Both the position numbers and the translations under genes were made by a program. Below the pieces are notes generated by a model, which saw nothing but the letters and a program-made list of their open reading frames with translations, did not search any database and was not told the DNA's origin. Source: a virus (Duplodnaviria > Caudoviricetes). Taken from it: a stretch of 31,584 nt of DNA. Of this stretch, positions 3,179-22,616 are shown in pieces (the first letter of the stretch is position 1; the number at the start of each line of letters is the position of its first letter). The stretch spans positions 1 to 31,584 of IMG/VR virus record IMGVR_UViG_3300023252_000080; one strand, given 5' to 3'.

Positions 3179-3235
3179 AGTGATTTTTATCTTTTTACTA
3201 AATCACTTGAAACGACAGCTCTAATCGGGTTTAAT
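3179..3235 (+). promoter_or_regulatory. Sigma70-type promoter with adjacent inverted-repeat operator for the HTH-peptidase operon
   Basis: TTGAAA(3207-3212)-N17-TTTAAT(3230-3235). Inverted repeat AGTGATTT(3179-3186)/AAATCACT(3200-3207) touches the -35. Confidence 0.6.
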
Positions 3236-3271
3236 CTGGACAGGCTGTAAATCAACGACGGGGAATGCGCG

Positions 3272-3658
3272 ATGTCGCTTACAAAATTCGGGACCCAGGT
3301 TCGGGAGTACCGGCACACGCTCAATATGACCTTGACCACCATGGCTTCTGGCCTCAGTACGTCCTCATCTTTTTTGAGTTCGATGGAGACTGGGCGAACC
3401 AAAATACCAATGGAGTGGGTTGAGAAAATTGCTTCATTTTTCAACGAAAAAGGTTTGAAGGTCTCCAAGGAAATCCTCAAAGCCTTGGCGTGCGAAGACA
3501 ATGAAAGCGTTTGTCTTGAAGGGCTACCACCTCATCAAAAAATGCTGGTTGCCGGGTTTGCAAACTCGGACTTCAACCACGAGCAACTCATGAGACTTGG
3601 AAAGCTTTTGGCTGATATTCACGGGGAGAATGCCAAGAATGGCAGCGACGAACACTGA
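3272..3658 (+). CDS. XRE-family helix-turn-helix protein
   Basis: FGTQVREYR...TLTTMASGLSTSSSFLSSMETGRTKIP is a typical Cro/C1 HTH. GGGGA RBS upstream. Confidence 0.9.
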   Translation: MSLTKFGTQVREYRHTLNMTLTTMASGLSTSSSFLSSMETGRTKIPMEWVEKIASFFNEKGLKVSKEILKALACEDNESVCLEGLPPHQKMLVAGFANSDFNHEQLMRLGKLLADIHGENAKNGSDEH

Positions 3659-4139
3659 GCCCGATTTTGACTACCGCATGCGCGGACAGCGAGTGCACCC
3701 ACTAGCAGCAGAAGACATCAATTTTGTCAGCCAAAGGGTTAAGAAAATCCTGCAGCTAACCAAACGCGGATTCAGCGTTAAAAACGCAGAGCGGACGGTG
3801 GCGAGCTTCGAGCTTTACGGGATCTACATTGATGTAGTTGATGATCGACAATGGTTCGATGCTACTCGCGCCACAGTAGACCCAGCTAGCGGGATGATCT
3901 ATATGCCTCAAAAGCTATATGACCAACTATGTCGTGGAAAGGCAGAAGCCATCAGGATCTTCCTGCACGAAGTAGGTCATATCGTCTTGGGACATAGACC
4001 ACTCCTACACTTTGCTAACGCAGAGAAGAACCCTACCCACATTGAGGACTCAGAATGGCAAGCGGACACCTTTGCGGATGCCCTGCTTGACCTGCTCAAG
4101 CTACCTAAAGAGGACGCTCAGCTGGAATTAAGATTCTGA
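3639..4139 (+). CDS. ImmA/IrrE-family (DUF955/M78) Zn metallopeptidase
   Basis: HEVGH (HExxH) plus downstream EWQADTFA (ExxAxxFA). GGGGAG RBS favours ATG 3639. Overlaps the HTH gene by 20 nt. Confidence 0.9.
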   Translation: MAATNTEPDFDYRMRGQRVHPLAAEDINFVSQRVKKILQLTKRGFSVKNAERTVASFELYGIYIDVVDDRQWFDATRATVDPASGMIYMPQKLYDQLCRGKAEAIRIFLHEVGHIVLGHRPLLHFANAEKNPTHIEDSEWQADTFADALLDLLKLPKEDAQLELRF

Positions 4140-4319
4140 TTAGAAAGCTCCAATCAGAATGGTGGTTGGCTTGCCAACCAAAGAAGTTCTCCACTCGCTT
4201 CTTGCAAACTGACAAGAATTATGCTAGCGAAGCCTCCCTAGACAAGAGCAAAGCTTACGCATCTCTACGTCATTTGTCCAGCCTCGTGAGTAGTGGCCAC
4301 ACCTTTTTGGAGATTCCTT

Positions 4320-4433
4320 ATGGAATATACCGACGAAAGGGGCACCTTCATCCTGCGCTGGAGCCGACGCCTGAAAAATGGTCACGTTCAGCGGGCAGTG
4401 GGCAAGCCCTTCAAGATCTACATCTCGAAGTGA
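4320..4433 (+). CDS. Small basic 37-aa protein MEYTDERGTFILRWSRRLKNGHVQRAVGKPFKIYISK (not in ORF track)
   Basis: GGAG RBS at 4309-4312, ATG 4320, TGA 4431-4433. Same strand as the HTH/peptidase genes and followed by a GC-rich hairpin. Confidence 0.7.
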   Translation: MEYTDERGTFILRWSRRLKNGHVQRAVGKPFKIYISK

Positions 4434-4473
4434 ACCTAGGCTGAACCCATACGCCTTAACGTAGACCATGTGA

Positions 4474-4499
4474 AGCGGCAGCGCCAGGAGCCTGCCGCT
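4474..4499. terminator. Hairpin between convergent small ORF and Rz gene
   Basis: AGCGGCAG...CTGCCGCT inverted repeat; U-tract is weak. Confidence 0.45.
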
Positions 4500-4502
4500 C
4501 AT

Positions 4503-5006
4503 TCATTGTTCTTGTGGTACTAAAGAAGCATACGATGCTTCACATGCCTGCCCCGCTATTCGGGCTTGGTCATAAGCTTTCGCCAGTTCTCCCGCTCGAG
4601 CATCAGCCCGTGCGAGCAGGTCGGAGAGCACCATGGCGGCGCGGGTGGCTGCCTGGCCTCTGGCGATAGCGGCGGTATCCGTGCCGGGGCAACTGACGGT
4701 GGCAGCGAGCTGGGTGGCGTCACTGCGCAGCCGCTGACCAGCAGCATCGGCGCCAGCAGCGCCAGCATCAGCAATCGTTCTTTCTTCATGGGCTTTTACC
4801 CTCGCCTCTTGCTGCGCATCTGCGCTCCGGTGTTCTTCCTGGCGCGCCGATCGTTCGCCAATTATTTCCGCCAGTCGATCGCCGCTGTCCCGCTTCGCTG
4901 ATTGCTGGCCGGCCCGGGCAAGCTCCACTGAACGTCCGTGCTCATAGGCCGTCCAGTGGGAGACCAATAGCACCAGCACTGCAGCGCACCCAACCCAAGG
5001 GCTCAT
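4503..5006 (-). CDS. Rz-like i-spanin (DUF2514-like)
   Basis: N-terminal hydrophobic anchor, Ala-rich coiled coil and C-terminal AGQACE. Directly downstream of the endolysin. Confidence 0.85.
   Translation of the reverse strand: MSPWVGCAAVLVLLVSHWTAYEHGRSVELARAGQQSAKRDSGDRLAEIIGERSARQEEHRSADAQQEARVKAHEERTIADAGAAGADAAGQRLRSDATQLAATVSCPGTDTAAIARGQAATRAAMVLSDLLARADARAGELAKAYDQARIAGQACEASYASLVPQEQ
4556..4789 (-). CDS. Rz1-like o-spanin lipoprotein embedded in Rz
   Basis: Alternate frame inside Rz. Basic N-terminus, hydrophobic stretch, lipobox LVSG-C, Pro-rich mature part. Confidence 0.75.
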   Translation of the reverse strand: MKKERLLMLALLAPMLLVSGCAVTPPSSLPPSVAPARIPPLSPEARQPPAPPWCSPTCSHGLMLERENWRKLMTKPE

Positions 5007-5452
5007 GAAGCCAGGGCCCGCCGCACGCCCTCGTCGATCACCTCGGCCTTGTAGGGGTTGCCCCCGTTCTCGTGTACGATGATGCCCACCACAGCCTCAC
5101 GCAGCACCTGCGGCTTAGAGATGTCGATCGAATCGCGAACGCCTACGCCGAGGCGCTTCGCGATGGCCTGGGCATAAGCCAAGGTGTTGTTCTCACTGGC
5201 CGGCGCCCAGCGGCTGATGAACTCCAGCGGGGTATCGATACCAGGGCGGCCCACGCCGGGCATGCCGTCCTTGCCGCGGTAGTTGAGCAGCAGCTTCCCC
5301 AAGGCTCGAATGCCGTTCTCGGCCTGGTCAAAGCGGGCGAAACGCGGGCTGGCCACGCCGACCTCCAAGCCGAGCTGGCCCTGCCAAGCGTTACGGGGAT
5401 TGAAATCGATGTTGCCGGGATTCCGGTTGCGGACGCCGCGTGGTGTAGACAT
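5003..5452 (-). CDS. Endolysin / lytic transglycosylase-like protein
   Basis: PRGVRNRNPGNI, RWAPASENNT and HENG motifs. Precedes Rz/Rz1. Confidence 0.8.
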   Translation of the reverse strand: MSTPRGVRNRNPGNIDFNPRNAWQGQLGLEVGVASPRFARFDQAENGIRALGKLLLNYRGKDGMPGVGRPGIDTPLEFISRWAPASENNTLAYAQAIAKRLGVGVRDSIDISKPQVLREAVVGIIVHENGGNPYKAEVIDEGVRRALAS

Positions 5453-6305: not shown

Positions 6306-8108
6306 TTAAATCAGATTGAGTTTTGCAGCGGCAATGTATGGAGCGATACCCTGAAAGAGCCGCGCTCGGTTCGCGCCGATTGGGTGAGTGTTATCGCTGA
6401 TCTCTGCGGTGCCGAATCCCGTCACAGGATCGAGGGTGACTGTTCCCGTCTTGTAGCCAGTCTCTGGGTTAGCGAAAGTCCACGATGGCACCAATATGTT
6501 CTTGGAGTCGCCGAGAGCGTTAAGGTTGGTCATCACAGCCCGGATCATCGGCACATAGCGATCAGTCCACTGGCTGTTCCGGGTTTTTTGGAACGGAAGA
6601 CCAGGCAGACCACGAAGGATCTTCACGTCAGGCCATGCGGCCCGGATTCGCTGCATCATCAGCTTCTCGTTATCGAGAATGTATGCACCTAGCGCCGCCG
6701 CGTTTGTCACTTGAATGAAGTCGTTCATGCCCAGCATGTAGACGATGATGTCAGGCGTAGGGAGCGAGAACCGGCTCTGATAGAAAGCGAAGTCCAGTAC
6801 ATACCCGTTCCGCACGATCGCGGGGTCATCAGAACCCGTAGCCAAGCGGATAAACGGGTTTCGATCACGCCGAGGGATCTTCGCCAACGCCAGATACTCA
6901 GCTTCCCCGCCTGGCGCGACTGGAATGGTGATGGAGCTGACATCTGCATAGGTGTAGTTGCCAGTCGTGTACCCCTCCCGGCATTCGCCCATTGGGCCAC
7001 TGGCGTCGATTGGGTTCTCTGGGTCAGTAGATCCTGGCATGGTGCCAATGAAGTTCGCCGAGAAACCGGCCGCCTCAAGAGAGCTCTTGAGAAACTGAGC
7101 ACCTTGCCGGTTTGAGATGCTGTCGCCGATAATCAGAATGTTCGGTGCCCCGCCCGGGAAAGGACCGGATGGAAGCTCGATCATGGAGAGGTCCATGATG
7201 TGGTGAGTCAGCGCATTGTTTGGGTCTCGAAGCTTGAGCCTGGCTTTAGCCCCAAACTTTCCGGCCTCAACGACCAGCTCTCGGGTGGAACTGCTTGATT
7301 CTGGCGTGGTATCACTGGCAATCGACGCTACGACCCCAACTCCATCTGCCCTAGGTGCGATCATGCTACTGACATCTAGGTGTAATGGCACGCCAGGCGC
7401 AGTTACAACTTTTTGAGCAAAGTAGGCGCCACCGCCTAGAGGATCGGACGGCGTAGGCGCGATCGCCCCTGGCTCCTCGCCTGGATCATCAAGACGCTGA
7501 AAGATGTTGTCTTCCTGATCGACTACGTACATACCAGGGAGCGTGGTGTTACCTATCATCAGCGGGCCTAGGCTGATTCCGACCGAGTCCGCATGAAGCA
7601 GCGCATCCGCCTCTTGCCCGTAGATGCCTGAACCTGGGGTGTCGATTGAAGACTCCAGCGAAGGAGAGCGGGTACGGAACGGGGTGATAAGAAGGAACTC
7701 GCCACTCTCTTCATCCGTTAGACTCAACGCAGCCTCTTCCGACGCAACCGGCATCTGAGGAACGCCCGCTATCAGTAAGTTGACCTCTTTGATAGCTTCA
7801 GCACTGGGATAGGTTTTGAGATACACCGCTGTGCCGCCGACGTTCCGGTACACATCGACGTACTCGTCTTGTGCGCTGGAAAGAACGCTGAAACTCGTGC
7901 CGTCTACCGTGCTTGCAATTCCCTGCTCCACGGTTGTGTACGGAAGAGCTCCCCCAAGCTGAGTTGCCAGGTTGGTCATCACCATTGAATTCGTTGGCCG
8001 CATTACGCCGCCGCCAACGTCAATCATCTTCACTTCGGGCGACAGCAGTAGCTCGTTCGTCGTCCCGACAATCCGGTCCAGCTCCTGAAGGGTGTCTTGG
8101 CCGCTCAT
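6306..8108 (-). CDS. Tail fibre/spike with C-terminal SGNH/GDSL hydrolase domain
   Basis: Start MSGQDTLQ at 8108 after a GAGGA RBS. Contains ILIIGDSIS (block I), LGMND (block III) and DNTHP (DxxH). Confidence 0.8.
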   Translation of the reverse strand: MSGQDTLQELDRIVGTTNELLLSPEVKMIDVGGGVMRPTNSMVMTNLATQLGGALPYTTVEQGIASTVDGTSFSVLSSAQDEYVDVYRNVGGTAVYLKTYPSAEAIKEVNLLIAGVPQMPVASEEAALSLTDEESGEFLLITPFRTRSPSLESSIDTPGSGIYGQEADALLHADSVGISLGPLMIGNTTLPGMYVVDQEDNIFQRLDDPGEEPGAIAPTPSDPLGGGAYFAQKVVTAPGVPLHLDVSSMIAPRADGVGVVASIASDTTPESSSSTRELVVEAGKFGAKARLKLRDPNNALTHHIMDLSMIELPSGPFPGGAPNILIIGDSISNRQGAQFLKSSLEAAGFSANFIGTMPGSTDPENPIDASGPMGECREGYTTGNYTYADVSSITIPVAPGGEAEYLALAKIPRRDRNPFIRLATGSDDPAIVRNGYVLDFAFYQSRFSLPTPDIIVYMLGMNDFIQVTNAAALGAYILDNEKLMMQRIRAAWPDVKILRGLPGLPFQKTRNSQWTDRYVPMIRAVMTNLNALGDSKNILVPSWTFANPETGYKTGTVTLDPVTGFGTAEISDNTHPIGANRARLFQGIAPYIAAAKLNLI

Positions 8109-8124
8109 CAAAATCTTCCTCAAT

Positions 8125-8148
8125 AAAAAGCCCGCACGGGGCGGGCTT
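8125..8148 (-). terminator. Intrinsic terminator between tail-tip gene and spike gene
   Basis: AAGCCCGCCCCGTGCGGGCTTTT on the minus strand. Confidence 0.65.
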
Positions 8149-8164
8149 GGTAACTGCTGCGGCG

Positions 8165-11100
8165 TCATGCCGGCGGGAACTGGTCGTCGTAGGTGTAAAC
8201 CCGGGCGTCGTAGGGCATGCCCTTCATCGCCGTATTGCCGTTGGCTGGGTCGGAACTGGTGACCAGAACCGGGTAGGCCCAGCGCGAGGCCGGGCCAAAC
8301 AGGATGTGCGGCGGCTCCAGCGGGCCATCCACTACCGGCGTGAAGTCGAGGGCGTCGACGCGGACCGTGTACTGATCCACCTGCGTGGCAGTCCATGGAC
8401 CGGATAGCGTGCCGTCCAGCTTGCGCACGCCGATCCGGTGTTCGCCGCCGGCGCTGAAGTCTAGCGGCTCCGATGAGGTCAGCAGCGTTCCCGGTCCCGT
8501 CACCTCGAAGTCCAGCAGGATCGCGCTCTGGCAACGCTTGGGCGCGTCATCCGCAACGGCCGCGAAACTCAGGTAGCCGCTGTTGCTGCCGTCCATCTCG
8601 GTTTCCCAGGTGTAAATGTCGGTCCGGAACTTCTGGTGGCCACGCCGGCGCATACCGATCCGCCAGGCCCTGGTCCTGTCGCTGACGCCCGGCATCTTGA
8701 TCTTCTCAACCTTGGTGCCCAGGTCACCTGGCCACCGGCACTCGACCGTCTCCCACGCCCAAGTGGTGCGCGAGAAGAACTCCACATCCACGCCGTCGAA
8801 GTCGTTGATAGACGGCATGGCGCCGCTGATCTTGAGCATCTTGGTCATGTTCTGTGGCGAGTAGGTCTGCGTTTTCGGTCCGTAGGTCACGTCGAAAGCA
8901 GCCCGGGCACTATCCCGAACCGGGCGCAGCAATCCCCGGAAGGTCACCAGTTCGCCGAACCCACACGCCAGCGCGTTGTTGATCATGTCCTTGACGGTGA
9001 TCGTCGACTCCAGCGTCTCGTCGTAGGTGTCACCCCGGGCTACGCAGATGTTGTGGAATGCCTGCCACTCCGGCAGATCCAGATCATCGTCCGTGTACCC
9101 GCGCTGCTTCAGCTGGTAGATGCACCAGGGCACGATGTCGCGGGTTGGCCCGGTACCGCCCTCCATCAACGGCAGGATGCGGGTTGCCTCCCCACTTACC
9201 TGGCTCTCCGACTGCGCGGATAACCGATCACCGCCGCGGATATTGCAGGAGATGACCGTCATCGGGTAGCTGGTGGGCGAGTTCTGCATCCGCCCGCGCA
9301 GGTCCGTCCAGGTGGCGTCATCCCGCGCTTCATCGTTGATACGGCCGGGCCGGTCCACGTACTGCTTGCGGATACGCGCCTCGGCTCGCATTGCGTATGG
9401 CAGCGTGATTCGCTCGGTGAAGCCCTGAGCATCAAGCGAGCCGCCCACGTTCATGTACTCGAGCTTTGTCCAGGCGCCGGCCACGTCCATGTCGCGGTAC
9501 TCGAACACGTAGTAGGTCGGGATCTCGTAAATCTGCCCTTCCCTACCGATACCGGCCAAGCCATTGGCGTAGGTGACAGTCCACTCCAGTTGGGTGACTT
9601 TCTCGTTTTCCGGGCAGCAGGCGAATGGCCCGCGGTAGCCGCCCTGCAGGTTCGAAGCGTCCAGCGTGATGAGGCCGTTCACGGTCTGCATGGCGTTGAA
9701 TCCGGGCCAGCCCGCGTCGGTCGACCCGGACGAGGTCAGGCGCTCAACCTCGAGCAGGCTCGTGCTGAAGGCCGTGATCCGGTACCGCAGCCCGCGTGGG
9801 CCGATAGTGGCCAGACCCTGACCCAGCGCCAGCCCCACCACAGGCGATCCACCGTCGTAGTCCAGCGTCATTTCCGCTGGCTGCTCGGGAATGGCGCTTG
9901 TCGTTGCTGTGCCGGTCGACCCGACCGGAGACGATCCCAGAATGGTGGATGCACCGGTAGCCGTGATGGCCTGGCCAGCAAACGGGGTCAGCTCAACGAA
10001 GCGCAGGCGCCCGCTGCTCTGCTGGGCCTGGAATGGCGTACCGCTCAGCTGGGCATTCAGCGCAGTCACAAGCCCGGCCAGGTCGGTTATCGCCGTGTTC
10101 AGCGTCACCGGGTAGGTCGAACTGCCGCGCGCCAGGCTAAAGCTAAGAGGCGTCACGTTGAAGTCGTACCGGCTCGGCGCCGCTGATCCGGTGAGCGTCG
10201 ATGCCGTGCCCGGGTCAGCAGGTACGGCCGGAGTGTATGGCGTGTAGCTGTGCACGACGTACAGGCCAGCGTTCGCCCCAGCCACCTCGATGAGCATGCC
10301 CACCGAAGGGTTCAGCATCTCCAGCGGGCCGCGGATGATGTCACGCCCGGCGCCACCGTCGATCACCGTGTAGGTGTACGGAGCGAGCACGCGAATGATG
10401 ATGCCGTTCGACCAGTCGGCAGAGAACTGGCCGGAGCCAGCCGGCACGCTGATGGTGTCGCCAATGAACTGGTAAGCCGAAGCCGTGATCGATCTGGTGA
10501 GGTCGGTGGCCATGGTCAGCTCCAAGCCGGCCGAGCCGCTTGAGCTTGCCCCTACCTCGGGCACGTTGAACCAGTTGATGTGGGCTGGGTCGCCAGAAAG
10601 ATCGGCACCTGGTGGGTAAATCGTGAACGTTGCATCGGATCCAAGGGAGATCAGCGGGGTTTCGCCAACCTTGACCTTCGCCAGCGGCACGTCGTACTCG
10701 CCCTCGCCTATGTAGAGCAGCATTTCAACGCGCTGGTCGCGCGGCGAGACATGCACCCGCCGTGGCTGGGCCAGGTACGACCCGTATACGCGCTGATGCC
10801 CTGCGATCTGGCGCACTGGCTCGCCCAGCTTGACCTTGTTGCCCTTGGCGCTGGCCTCGGTCAGCGGGTCGCCCTGCTGGGTACCCGCACTGGACGGCAT
10901 GCCAGGCATCTTCGGCATGATCGCTTTGAGCACGGCCTTGGCGCCCTTGAACAGGGCGAAGGTGATGGAGAATGGGTCGGTACCCTGGGGCTCGCGGTAG
11001 ATCTGGAGCAGGTCGGATGGCTTGAACTTCACCTTGTGCCACAGGTGCTGTTCGATCACCTCATCGTTCAGCACCACGCTGATTGGCGGGCTTTCGCGGC

Positions 11101-22040: not shown

Positions 22041-22616
22041 TCAGCTAGGGAAATAAGTTAAGTCAAGAGGGATCTGAGTTCCGCCTAGAGTCGTTTCGAT
22101 AAACAGCATCATATCCGCACGTTGAATCGGGGCCATGTCATTGATTTCAGCCTTTCTGACAAGGCCCTTGAGTTCAGGGGTAAATCGGAAATCGATTTTA
22201 TCTCCGAACTCCAGACGAACAGGCAGAGCGCTTGAATCGATTAAATAATTATCAAAGGCCCAGATTTTTGGCTCCCTTCTGCTTCCGAGATAGATCCCAG
22301 TAATACGGACTGGAAGACGCCCTTTAGAGGTGACCTCTAGCCCCATAGCCGACGTCCCTTGGCCAATGTTCAAAATGCCGTACGTTAGAGCCTCCAACTG
22401 CTCCTTTTGACTATGCATGTCCTCTATCCGCACCTTCAATGCCAAGACAACCGCTGCTAACGTACCAATTCCAGCAACCCAATCGGCTGCACTCCCCCAA
22501 TCCGGGACAAATTTCACTGTCGCCTGGGGATTGAGATTGATCCCTGCAGTCAGGCCTGCCAACGCAGCCAAAACACATAGAATTAGAACCCCTGCGATCC
22601 CTGCCGAAACCTTCAT
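22041..22616 (-). CDS. Moron: membrane-anchored hypothetical protein
   Basis: AT-richer than flanks. Two N-terminal hydrophobic segments (incl. WGSAADWVAGIGTLAAVVLAL). Interrupts the head operon. Confidence 0.7.
   Translation of the reverse strand: MKVSAGIAGVLILCVLAALAGLTAGINLNPQATVKFVPDWGSAADWVAGIGTLAAVVLALKVRIEDMHSQKEQLEALTYGILNIGQGTSAMGLEVTSKGRLPVRITGIYLGSRREPKIWAFDNYLIDSSALPVRLEFGDKIDFRFTPELKGLVRKAEINDMAPIQRADMMLFIETTLGGTQIPLDLTYFPS

Follow-up and report, generated by a model that had tools for sequence, protein, structure and literature searches.

A stretch of 31,584 nucleotides (nt) from a virus of the class Caudoviricetes (Duplodnaviria; IMG/VR virus record IMGVR_UViG_3300023252_000080, positions 1 to 31,584; called the window here, at its full length) carries a 1.3-kb cassette that encodes an XRE-family helix-turn-helix (HTH) protein, an ImmA/IrrE-like zinc peptidase and a basic microprotein of 37 amino acids (aa). 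This cassette represents a real, widespread and apparently undescribed module of four parts, at the core of which lies what appears to be a portable unit of RNA and microprotein. That pairs of Xre regulators and COG2856 proteases control some third component is a long-standing prediction (PMC2701414), and the microprotein is a concrete and conserved candidate for it. Its family is large, occurring in prophages of Pseudomonas, Enterobacteriaceae, Neisseria, Acinetobacter and others as well as inside defence operons, and annotation pipelines either leave its members 'hypothetical' or miss them. The original prediction, made from the sequence of the window, described a three-part cassette in which nothing but the peptide is carried as cargo and suggested an undescribed module. 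Its observation of three genes is confirmed, as is the existence of a conserved, undescribed module with that sole cargo, and its interpretation is partly supported; a fourth part, the putative antisense promoter and RNA in the spacer, and a clamp-motif-like tail on the peptidase had been overlooked.

The 31.6-kb record encodes an integrase, a terminase, a tape measure protein and spanins, and the cassette lies on its plus strand between the end of the integrase gene and the convergent lysis genes. As had been noticed, it is an AT-richer insert (48.6% GC versus 60.1% for the window) on the strand opposite to the spanin and lysis genes, in which the HTH and HExxH peptidase genes overlap (by 20 nt) and the small open reading frame (ORF) has its own GGAG ribosome-binding site. 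No further gene follows the microprotein gene on the same strand. The closest relatives of the cassette come from Pseudomonas, and in phage H66 the same three genes are annotated, terminator included, again with nothing downstream of the peptide gene on that strand.

The association of the peptide with the HTH-peptidase pair was measured in 160 loci, namely the window and 159 loci gathered by their peptidase alone. When 26,290 short frames were scanned, regardless of their position, with a profile seeded by the window peptide, it matched directly 3' of the peptidase in 118 loci; the one match elsewhere was a tandem copy. A second class of peptide (class B, the first being class A) occupies this slot in another 26 loci and appears as a second unit in five. 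Altogether, a peptide of one class or the other follows the peptidase in 144 of the 160 loci, which contain 121 distinct spacers. An HTH domain is adjacent to or fused with the peptidase in 158 loci, and all three genes are present in 142, the cargo being co-directional in every one, so that the co-occurrence proposed as a check is borne out and the refutation proposed with it, a peptide ORF that is not conserved beside such pairs, fails. Among the 16 loci without a peptide, five end at the end of a contig and seven carry fused HTH-peptidases. The linkage was replicated in 41 new metagenome loci, where 29 of the 33 with enough downstream DNA have the peptide. Homology between the two classes is unsupported (hhalign probability about 1%), and we treat them as two classes filling one slot; their peptides are only 13% identical, yet they are carried by peptidases that are 84% identical. 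Several loci contain tandem units, in which a second spacer and peptide follow the first, either as class B after class A or as a class A repeat (L007 at 4470-5067, L009, L092, L146 and L034). Other small genes lie 3' of the peptide as well: DUF2188 genes in some loci with long peptidases (L019, 2322-2540, PADLOC PDC-S16; L045, 4940-5173) and lysine/serine-rich ORFs in L022, L150 and L236. Near two of the related loci there are matches to a type II hammerhead ribozyme and to sRNA-Xcc1 (L027 1656-1723; L188 2235-2317).

All three ORFs of the cassette, that of the microprotein included, are real genes. Compared with 16 close relatives, the 37-aa frame is under purifying selection (pN/pS 0.118), and 211 of the 308 differences fall at third codon positions. 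The description as unannotated in the original prediction holds only in part: public collections contain this sequence as a called gene, and named members of its family are labelled as hypothetical proteins. The class A profile gathers 1,609 clusters at 50% identity, from hosts that include Pseudomonadota, Bacillota and Synergistota. The window peptide contains nine lysine or arginine and three acidic residues; across the family, lengths run from 31 to 52 aa and net charges from +3 to +14, and a membrane segment (19-residue hydropathy above 1.6) occurs in none of 106 peptides. Searches of Pfam, NCBIfam and PADLOC with the 37-aa peptide returned no match, PADLOC models matched none of 10 small proteins tested, and a search of the ESM Atlas gave unnamed clusters only. 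The nearest PHROG, phrog_4533 (E 0.037), is of unknown function, as are the other PHROGs that match the family, and the best hit among Protein Data Bank sequences (E 0.48) assigns no fold. A class A subgroup has four cysteines, as CxxC near the start and CxC near the end, which probably form a zinc site around the same core (L015, L017, L018, L103, L104, L106 and L153).

The 180-nt spacer between peptidase and peptide holds the part of the module that had escaped notice. In 17 close spacers, TGTCCA and the A/TA columns of a -10 box are invariant and together make a minus-strand promoter of the sigma70 type, directed back towards the peptidase gene; the motif matches once in the window, where 0.12 matches are expected. 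Scored with a promoter matrix, the best minus-strand site in the 121 distinct spacers has a mean z of 2.26, with 77 spacers above 1.64, while the sense strand of the same spacers has a mean z of -0.20, with 10 above that value; a sense promoter within the spacer was rejected on this score. The antisense -35 box is placed 20-49 nt ahead of the peptide start in 94 of the 121 spacers, and an antisense promoter was found in none of 11 control intergenic regions, a small set. Since the spacer lacks a sense promoter, the microprotein would be read from the mRNA of the upstream operon.

Structure within the spacer is concentrated where the antisense RNA is predicted. The claim of a structured spacer fails for the whole spacer on the plus strand (z -0.39 against shuffles) and holds for its 5' part read on the minus strand, where the predicted RNA of about 115 nt has a fold z of -4.73 and none of 200 shuffles is equally stable. 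Over 68 leader clusters, the mean fold z of this zone is -3.03 on the minus strand and -2.14 on the plus strand. Of 61 clusters, 45 have a terminator-like hairpin near the peptidase stop codon that faces the minus strand, and 10 have one that faces the plus strand. Among 17 close sequences, two leader hairpins show changes on both sides in six of seven and five of seven pairs, and a pairing of the second loop with the leader further downstream covaries in three of five pairs, in each case with lenient controls, since the structure was drawn from the same alignment. Rfam has no match in the spacers of the window region and 34 related loci, and beyond promoter words and one loop, no RNA sequence is common to the clades of the 68 clusters; that loop, GCGCCAAC, recurs in the first hairpin of unrelated leaders in eight clusters, where 0.6-0.8 would be expected. 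Judged by these features, the spacer probably encodes a cis-antisense RNA gene in the layout of type I toxin-antitoxin loci.

Nor is the peptide confined to the neighbourhood of the peptidase. In a reverse search of 401 Pseudomonas genomes, and of 401 Enterobacterales together with 251 Moraxellaceae genomes (each set including its seed genome), we found 26 peptide matches in the former, three of them beside this peptidase, and 33 in the latter, 17 of them beside it; in total, 20 of 59 matches lie beside the peptidase and 39 do not have it nearby. Three of these orphans had no usable start and were left out of promoter scoring. In the Pseudomonas orphans, the antisense promoter is kept in 13 of 22, and a promoter on the sense strand is found in none of the 22. 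One locus (L167) shares the leader of the window and has a peptide 86% identical, placed behind other genes with neither HTH nor peptidase. Leader, antisense promoter and microprotein would thus seem to make up one portable unit.

The company kept by the orphans suggests regulators of DNA damage and of anti-phage responses. Eight related Pseudomonas loci (two of the eight scanned for the WYL assignment) and L233 have the peptide divergent from a WYL gene and ahead of ThsB or beta-flower genes, three orphans follow nrdB and three nrdA, one lies behind an AbiLi-like ATPase, and that of L236 lies behind a PD-lambda-2B-like Xre-peptidase fusion (426 bits). LexA-like boxes, by the commonly known consensus, are present at L175 and L256. 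WYL repressors and CapP are both described as sensing single-stranded DNA (PMC13373217). A type I-E CRISPR operon contains a peptide of the family, together with its leader, in the interval from cas3 to cas8e (L232, G503:C8). In L172, L178, L179, L181 and L183, a longer peptide variant has 5' of it a conserved gene of about 290 aa; this gene has no match in Pfam or PADLOC (three tested) or in NCBIfam (two tested).

At the head of the cassette, the HTH protein matches Pfam HTH_31 (31.8 bits, cut-off 27) and the capH model (E 5.5e-4). The original prediction gave the cassette its own promoter, and one can be read there beneath a conserved palindrome, although a consensus scan had missed it; RNA-library contigs that start at 3257 and 3260 in two of four runs give it a weak hint. 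The palindrome, a motif drawn by eye, is present with zero to two mismatches 5' of the HTH gene in 19 of the 20 close-clade loci with enough upstream DNA. An operator for the HTH protein inside the spacer was rejected, as the best spacer match has three to six mismatches. A palindrome that covers the -35 box 5' of the HTH gene and is absent from the spacers suggests, from the arrangement of the sites, that the repressor autoregulates a single operon.

The peptidase has HEVGH at residues 110-114 and DSEWQAD at 137, and across 120 peptidase sequences H110, E111, H114 and E139 are invariant, which accounts for HExxH and the downstream zinc-binding glutamate. It matches the phrog_87 metallo-protease (E 5e-11), falls under the Pfam M78 cut-off (18.1 bits against 22) and is weakly similar to Lit (E 0.0017, far under cut-off). 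The proteins of the family are 152-202 aa long, and its profile matches the CapP structure 7t5t (E 1.7e-12) over only residues 81-179 of 291; a search of the plasmid collection with the peptidase gave no match. The tails of these proteins fall into two kinds: 65 of 114 end in an HTH-like motif and 49 do not. A clamp-like tail of the QLSLF-, QLNLF- or QLELRF-type ends 46 of those 49 and none of the 65; relatives of the window peptidase end in QLSLF, QLNLF or QLSLKF. With patterns written after the tails had been seen, a terminal clamp motif is counted in 41 of 114 peptidase tails and in 40 of 1,056 background tails. The 46 clamp-tailed peptidases form one branch (SH-aLRT 98 in a quick tree, tails included) and span six or more families. 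The clamp-binding consensus is given as Q-phi-x-L-F or Q-phi-x-L-x-L, and QLELRF resembles the QVELEF motif of Pol III (both bioRxiv 10.64898/2026.05.27.728225). In the clade of the window, the usual C-terminal HTH thus appears to have been replaced by a clamp-binding-like motif, and with the one lost and the other gained, the peptidase may be recruited to the sliding clamp or activated there. Similar motifs are carried by 12 of 128 peptides, where 0.5 would be expected, and by only 3 of 150 library representatives; in 114 loci they are found on the peptidase (41) or on the peptide (7) and never on both. Such words stand at the peptide N-terminus (QLEMF) or C-terminus (QLTLF, QLSFDF) in L164, L171, L173, L174, L176 and L177, and in L020, L022, L026, L036, L039, L042 and L073.

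We propose that the cassette is an accessory operon of the prophage, with two separable modules, whose microprotein is a doubly gated effector, most likely a growth inhibitor that acts on nucleic acids or the replisome, and we give this reading a probability of about one half. In the first module, the XRE repressor would bind the palindrome over its own -35 box, and the zinc peptidase would cleave it under DNA damage or replication stress, as ImmA, IrrE and CapP do with their partners, perhaps after activation at the clamp. The second module would consist of the structured leader, the antisense promoter and the microprotein gene. Some 115 nt long and constitutively made, the cis-antisense RNA would pair with the leader and prevent translation, much as in type I toxin-antitoxin systems, until cleavage of the repressor brought the mRNA into excess over the antisense RNA and the microprotein was made from the upstream operon's transcript. 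As a soluble protein binding nucleic acids or the replisome, it would then inhibit growth, leading to arrest or abortive defence. We infer a harmful product from this double control, by analogy with tisB, timP and symE. If the peptide is toxic, type I systems extend past membrane peptides and phage defence gains a general stress-arrest output; if the clamp motif works, ImmA/IrrE proteases gain a new input. At 1.3 kb, the cassette leaves every step open to point mutants.

A number of observations weigh against this proposal. The promoter threshold of z 1.64 is missed by 44 of the 121 spacers, the matrix prefers, in the window itself, a second minus-strand site that reaches 1.5, and the second set of orphans has a weaker antisense promoter (mean z 1.15, kept in 5 of 14). 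Across the family, pairing of the loop with the leader is weak: 5 of 68 clusters reach p<=0.05, and a looser test gives 16 of 62. A pseudoknot common to the family is likewise weak beyond the clade of the window. The Shine-Dalgarno sequence is sequestered only slightly, its unpaired value being 0.38 where shuffles give 0.44 (p 0.002; 42 of 68 clusters), and 0.44 in the window. Of the 23 RNA runs that hold the cassette, four were examined, and in each of these the cassette is a single deep contig reaching 4622-4649, which fits poorly with tight repression. The runs had been selected for holding the cassette, have no DNA control and consist of unstranded contigs that give neither strand, ends nor level, so that uncovered flanks carry no weight and the antisense RNA is predicted, from promoter, fold and terminator features, rather than seen. 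The lack of a transmembrane segment in the peptides sets them apart from most type I toxins. Furthermore, the contexts of the orphans are few independent events, taken without a background control; several follow unknown genes, and L167 follows an MqsA-like antitoxin gene (below cut-off), neither being linked to DNA damage. Finally, the clamp-tailed clade is a single evolutionary event, recognised by patterns that had been fitted after the fact.

A more far-reaching form of the proposal can be put forward only tentatively. It holds that type I-like modules make up a large class that has gone unrecognised, numbering at least 1,600 clusters in several phyla, whose soluble basic effector acts on nucleic acids or the replisome and is plugged by phages and hosts behind whichever DNA-damage sensor is available (XRE/ImmA, WYL, LexA, nrdAB or CRISPR operons), and that the protease of the window's clade reads replication stress via the sliding clamp rather than single-stranded DNA.

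Among the other explanations, the one that deserves most attention, though we consider it rather unlikely, makes the microprotein a non-toxic regulator, either a nucleic-acid-binding modulator or a translated leader, that tunes the stress or defence operon around it while the antisense RNA sets a threshold or attenuates. That the peptide is basic and not hydrophobic agrees with such a role, as does its frequent position within or at the head of operons, as in the cas3/cas8e locus and before ThsB, beta-flower or DUF2188 genes. However, in the window and in H66 there is no same-strand gene after the peptide to be tuned, a terminator-like hairpin lies 3' of the peptide gene in 34 of 61 clusters, and the peptide units themselves may be repeated in tandem. 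It is improbable that the small RNA is the main product, silencing the HTH-peptidase mRNA through convergent or antisense effects or acting in trans, with the peptide as a binding partner. The promoter does face the peptidase gene and structure is strongest in the RNA region, but the predicted RNA ends at the peptidase stop codon in most clusters, the promoter keeps a fixed distance from the peptide start and travels with the peptide where the peptidase is absent, and clades share no RNA sequence apart from promoter words and the loop found in 8 of 68 clusters.

The original prediction left the peptide as effector, protease substrate or protease ligand, and of these options the effector is favoured. 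The Gol peptide acts on the Lit peptidase, and a dedicated activator, inhibitor or substrate of that kind would agree with the strong forward linkage (144 of 160 loci), with the weak similarity to Lit and with a clamp-like motif that stands on peptidase or peptide and never on both. The reverse search speaks against it: most peptide matches lie away from this peptidase and the antisense promoter is often kept there, which argues for an effector with double gating rather than a protease ligand, and the 86% identical peptide behind other genes in L167, together with the swapping of classes A and B on near-identical peptidases, makes the dedicated role quite improbable. Least probable of all, and by our estimate very much so, is a switch for prophage induction or superinfection immunity with the peptide as antirepressor. 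The arc-sar-ant region of P22, too, combines a repressor with an antisense RNA and a small gene in this arrangement, and the cassette does occur on temperate phages and prophage-like contigs; yet it is found in unrelated phage types and positions as well as in chromosomal defence and nrd operons, and no antirepressor family matches the peptide.

When the doubly gated effector cassette is set beside known systems, each resembles a part of it. Type I loci such as hok/Sok, ldr/Rdl and symE/SymR are well known, and most type I toxins are hydrophobic membrane proteins, SymE and RalR being exceptions. The cassette shares with such loci, in its sequence features, a small ORF, a long structured leader, a putative cis-antisense promoter and terminator, tandem copies and a possible pseudoknot, and its peptide would, like TisB and SymE, be under a protease-sensitive DNA-damage repressor; it differs in that its protein is basic, has no membrane segment and no Rfam or Pfam family, and depends on the promoter of the upstream operon. 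Comparators are described for timP/TimR (PMC11228461), tisB/IstR1 (PMC7708055) and type I systems in general (PMC8594479). As in ImmR/ImmA, DdrO/IrrE and CapH/CapP, an XRE HTH gene adjoins one for a zinc peptidase that has HExxH and belongs to their family, with likely autorepression (bioRxiv 10.1101/2022.04.27.489752; bioRxiv 10.64898/2026.05.16.725639), and the adjacency of a putative XRE repressor to a candidate operator over the promoter is a feature of the ImmR/ImmA type. In contrast to CapH/CapP, which lie opposite to their target operon, the cargo lies downstream and shares the strand of the pair, the divergent neighbour varies and the cargo is a predicted antisense-gated microprotein; CapP itself has a central HTH plus a GAF domain at the C-terminus, and the window peptidase has neither. 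For HTH-metallopeptidase operons, bioRxiv 10.1101/2022.04.27.489752 cites Burroughs and Aravind 2020. The three-component COG2856-Xre systems of PMC2701414 have a RelE or PIN toxin and usually a fused Xre-peptidase, and the accessible part of that paper mentions no microprotein or antisense RNA. RosmerTA combines Xre and ImmA/IrrE domains in a phage-defence toxin module, and so does PD-lambda-2 (PMC9519451). The cassette is neither of these: the RmrA and PD-lambda-2B fusions are about 370-400 aa long whereas the window has two separate genes, its proteins reach only E 0.003-0.03 with RmrA models, and no toxin model matches. In the literature searched, from which subscription papers were out of reach, we found no description of the peptide family or of the cassette.

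The features of the cassette are collected in the table. The closing hairpin that had been predicted is present (-17.2 kcal/mol) and has no U-run, and a terminator was not called.

Table. Features of the cassette in the window, in order of position
Feature	Position	Strand	Remarks
Palindromic candidate operator, TTCAAST-N5-RSTTGAM	3193-3211		Overlaps -35 box of cassette promoter; two mismatches in the window
Probable cassette promoter, TTGAAA-17-TTTAAT	3207-3235	+	Read from sequence; -10 box non-consensus
XRE-family HTH protein, 128 aa	3272-3658	+	Pfam HTH_31; capH model; putative autorepressor and protease substrate
ImmA/IrrE-like (COG2856/M78) zinc peptidase, 166 aa	3639-4139	+	No C-terminal HTH or GAF; C-terminus QLELRF
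Predicted antisense RNA, ~115 nt	4130-4245	-	Putative ends from promoter and terminal hairpin; fold z
Hairpin across peptidase stop codon	4133-4160	-	Inverted repeat I6; candidate terminator of antisense RNA; weak U-tail in the window copy
Two conserved leader hairpins	4163-4203	+	Loop of second hairpin, CCACT (4191-4195), can pair with AGTGG (4292-4296)
Conserved antisense sigma70-type promoter, TGGACA-17-TAAGCT	4252-4280	-	Invariant columns in close spacers; family test
Shine-Dalgarno sequence GGAG of peptide gene	4309-4312	+	Read from sequence
Basic microprotein, 37 aa	4320-4433	+	Purifying selection; unnamed family; predicted effector
Closing hairpin	4474-4499		Between peptide gene and convergent spanin gene; no U-run

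Elsewhere in the window, an SOS-box-like site, CTGT-N8-ACAG, lies at 2678-2693, the one match in the window and within chance. It stands just 5' of a small gene (phrog_5560, unknown function) and near a gene of 74 aa (phrog_9523), the two ORFs being at 2372-2641 and 2739-2963, both on the minus strand; at chance level, beside another gene and 0.6 kb upstream, it was not assigned to the cassette. A second low-GC gene, of 191 aa, lies inside the head/tail operon (22041-22616, minus strand), with no match in Pfam or NCBIfam and no clear PHROG. At 6306-8534 on the minus strand, a tail-associated protein of 742 aa contains a region that resembles GDSL/SGNH hydrolases, below cut-off.

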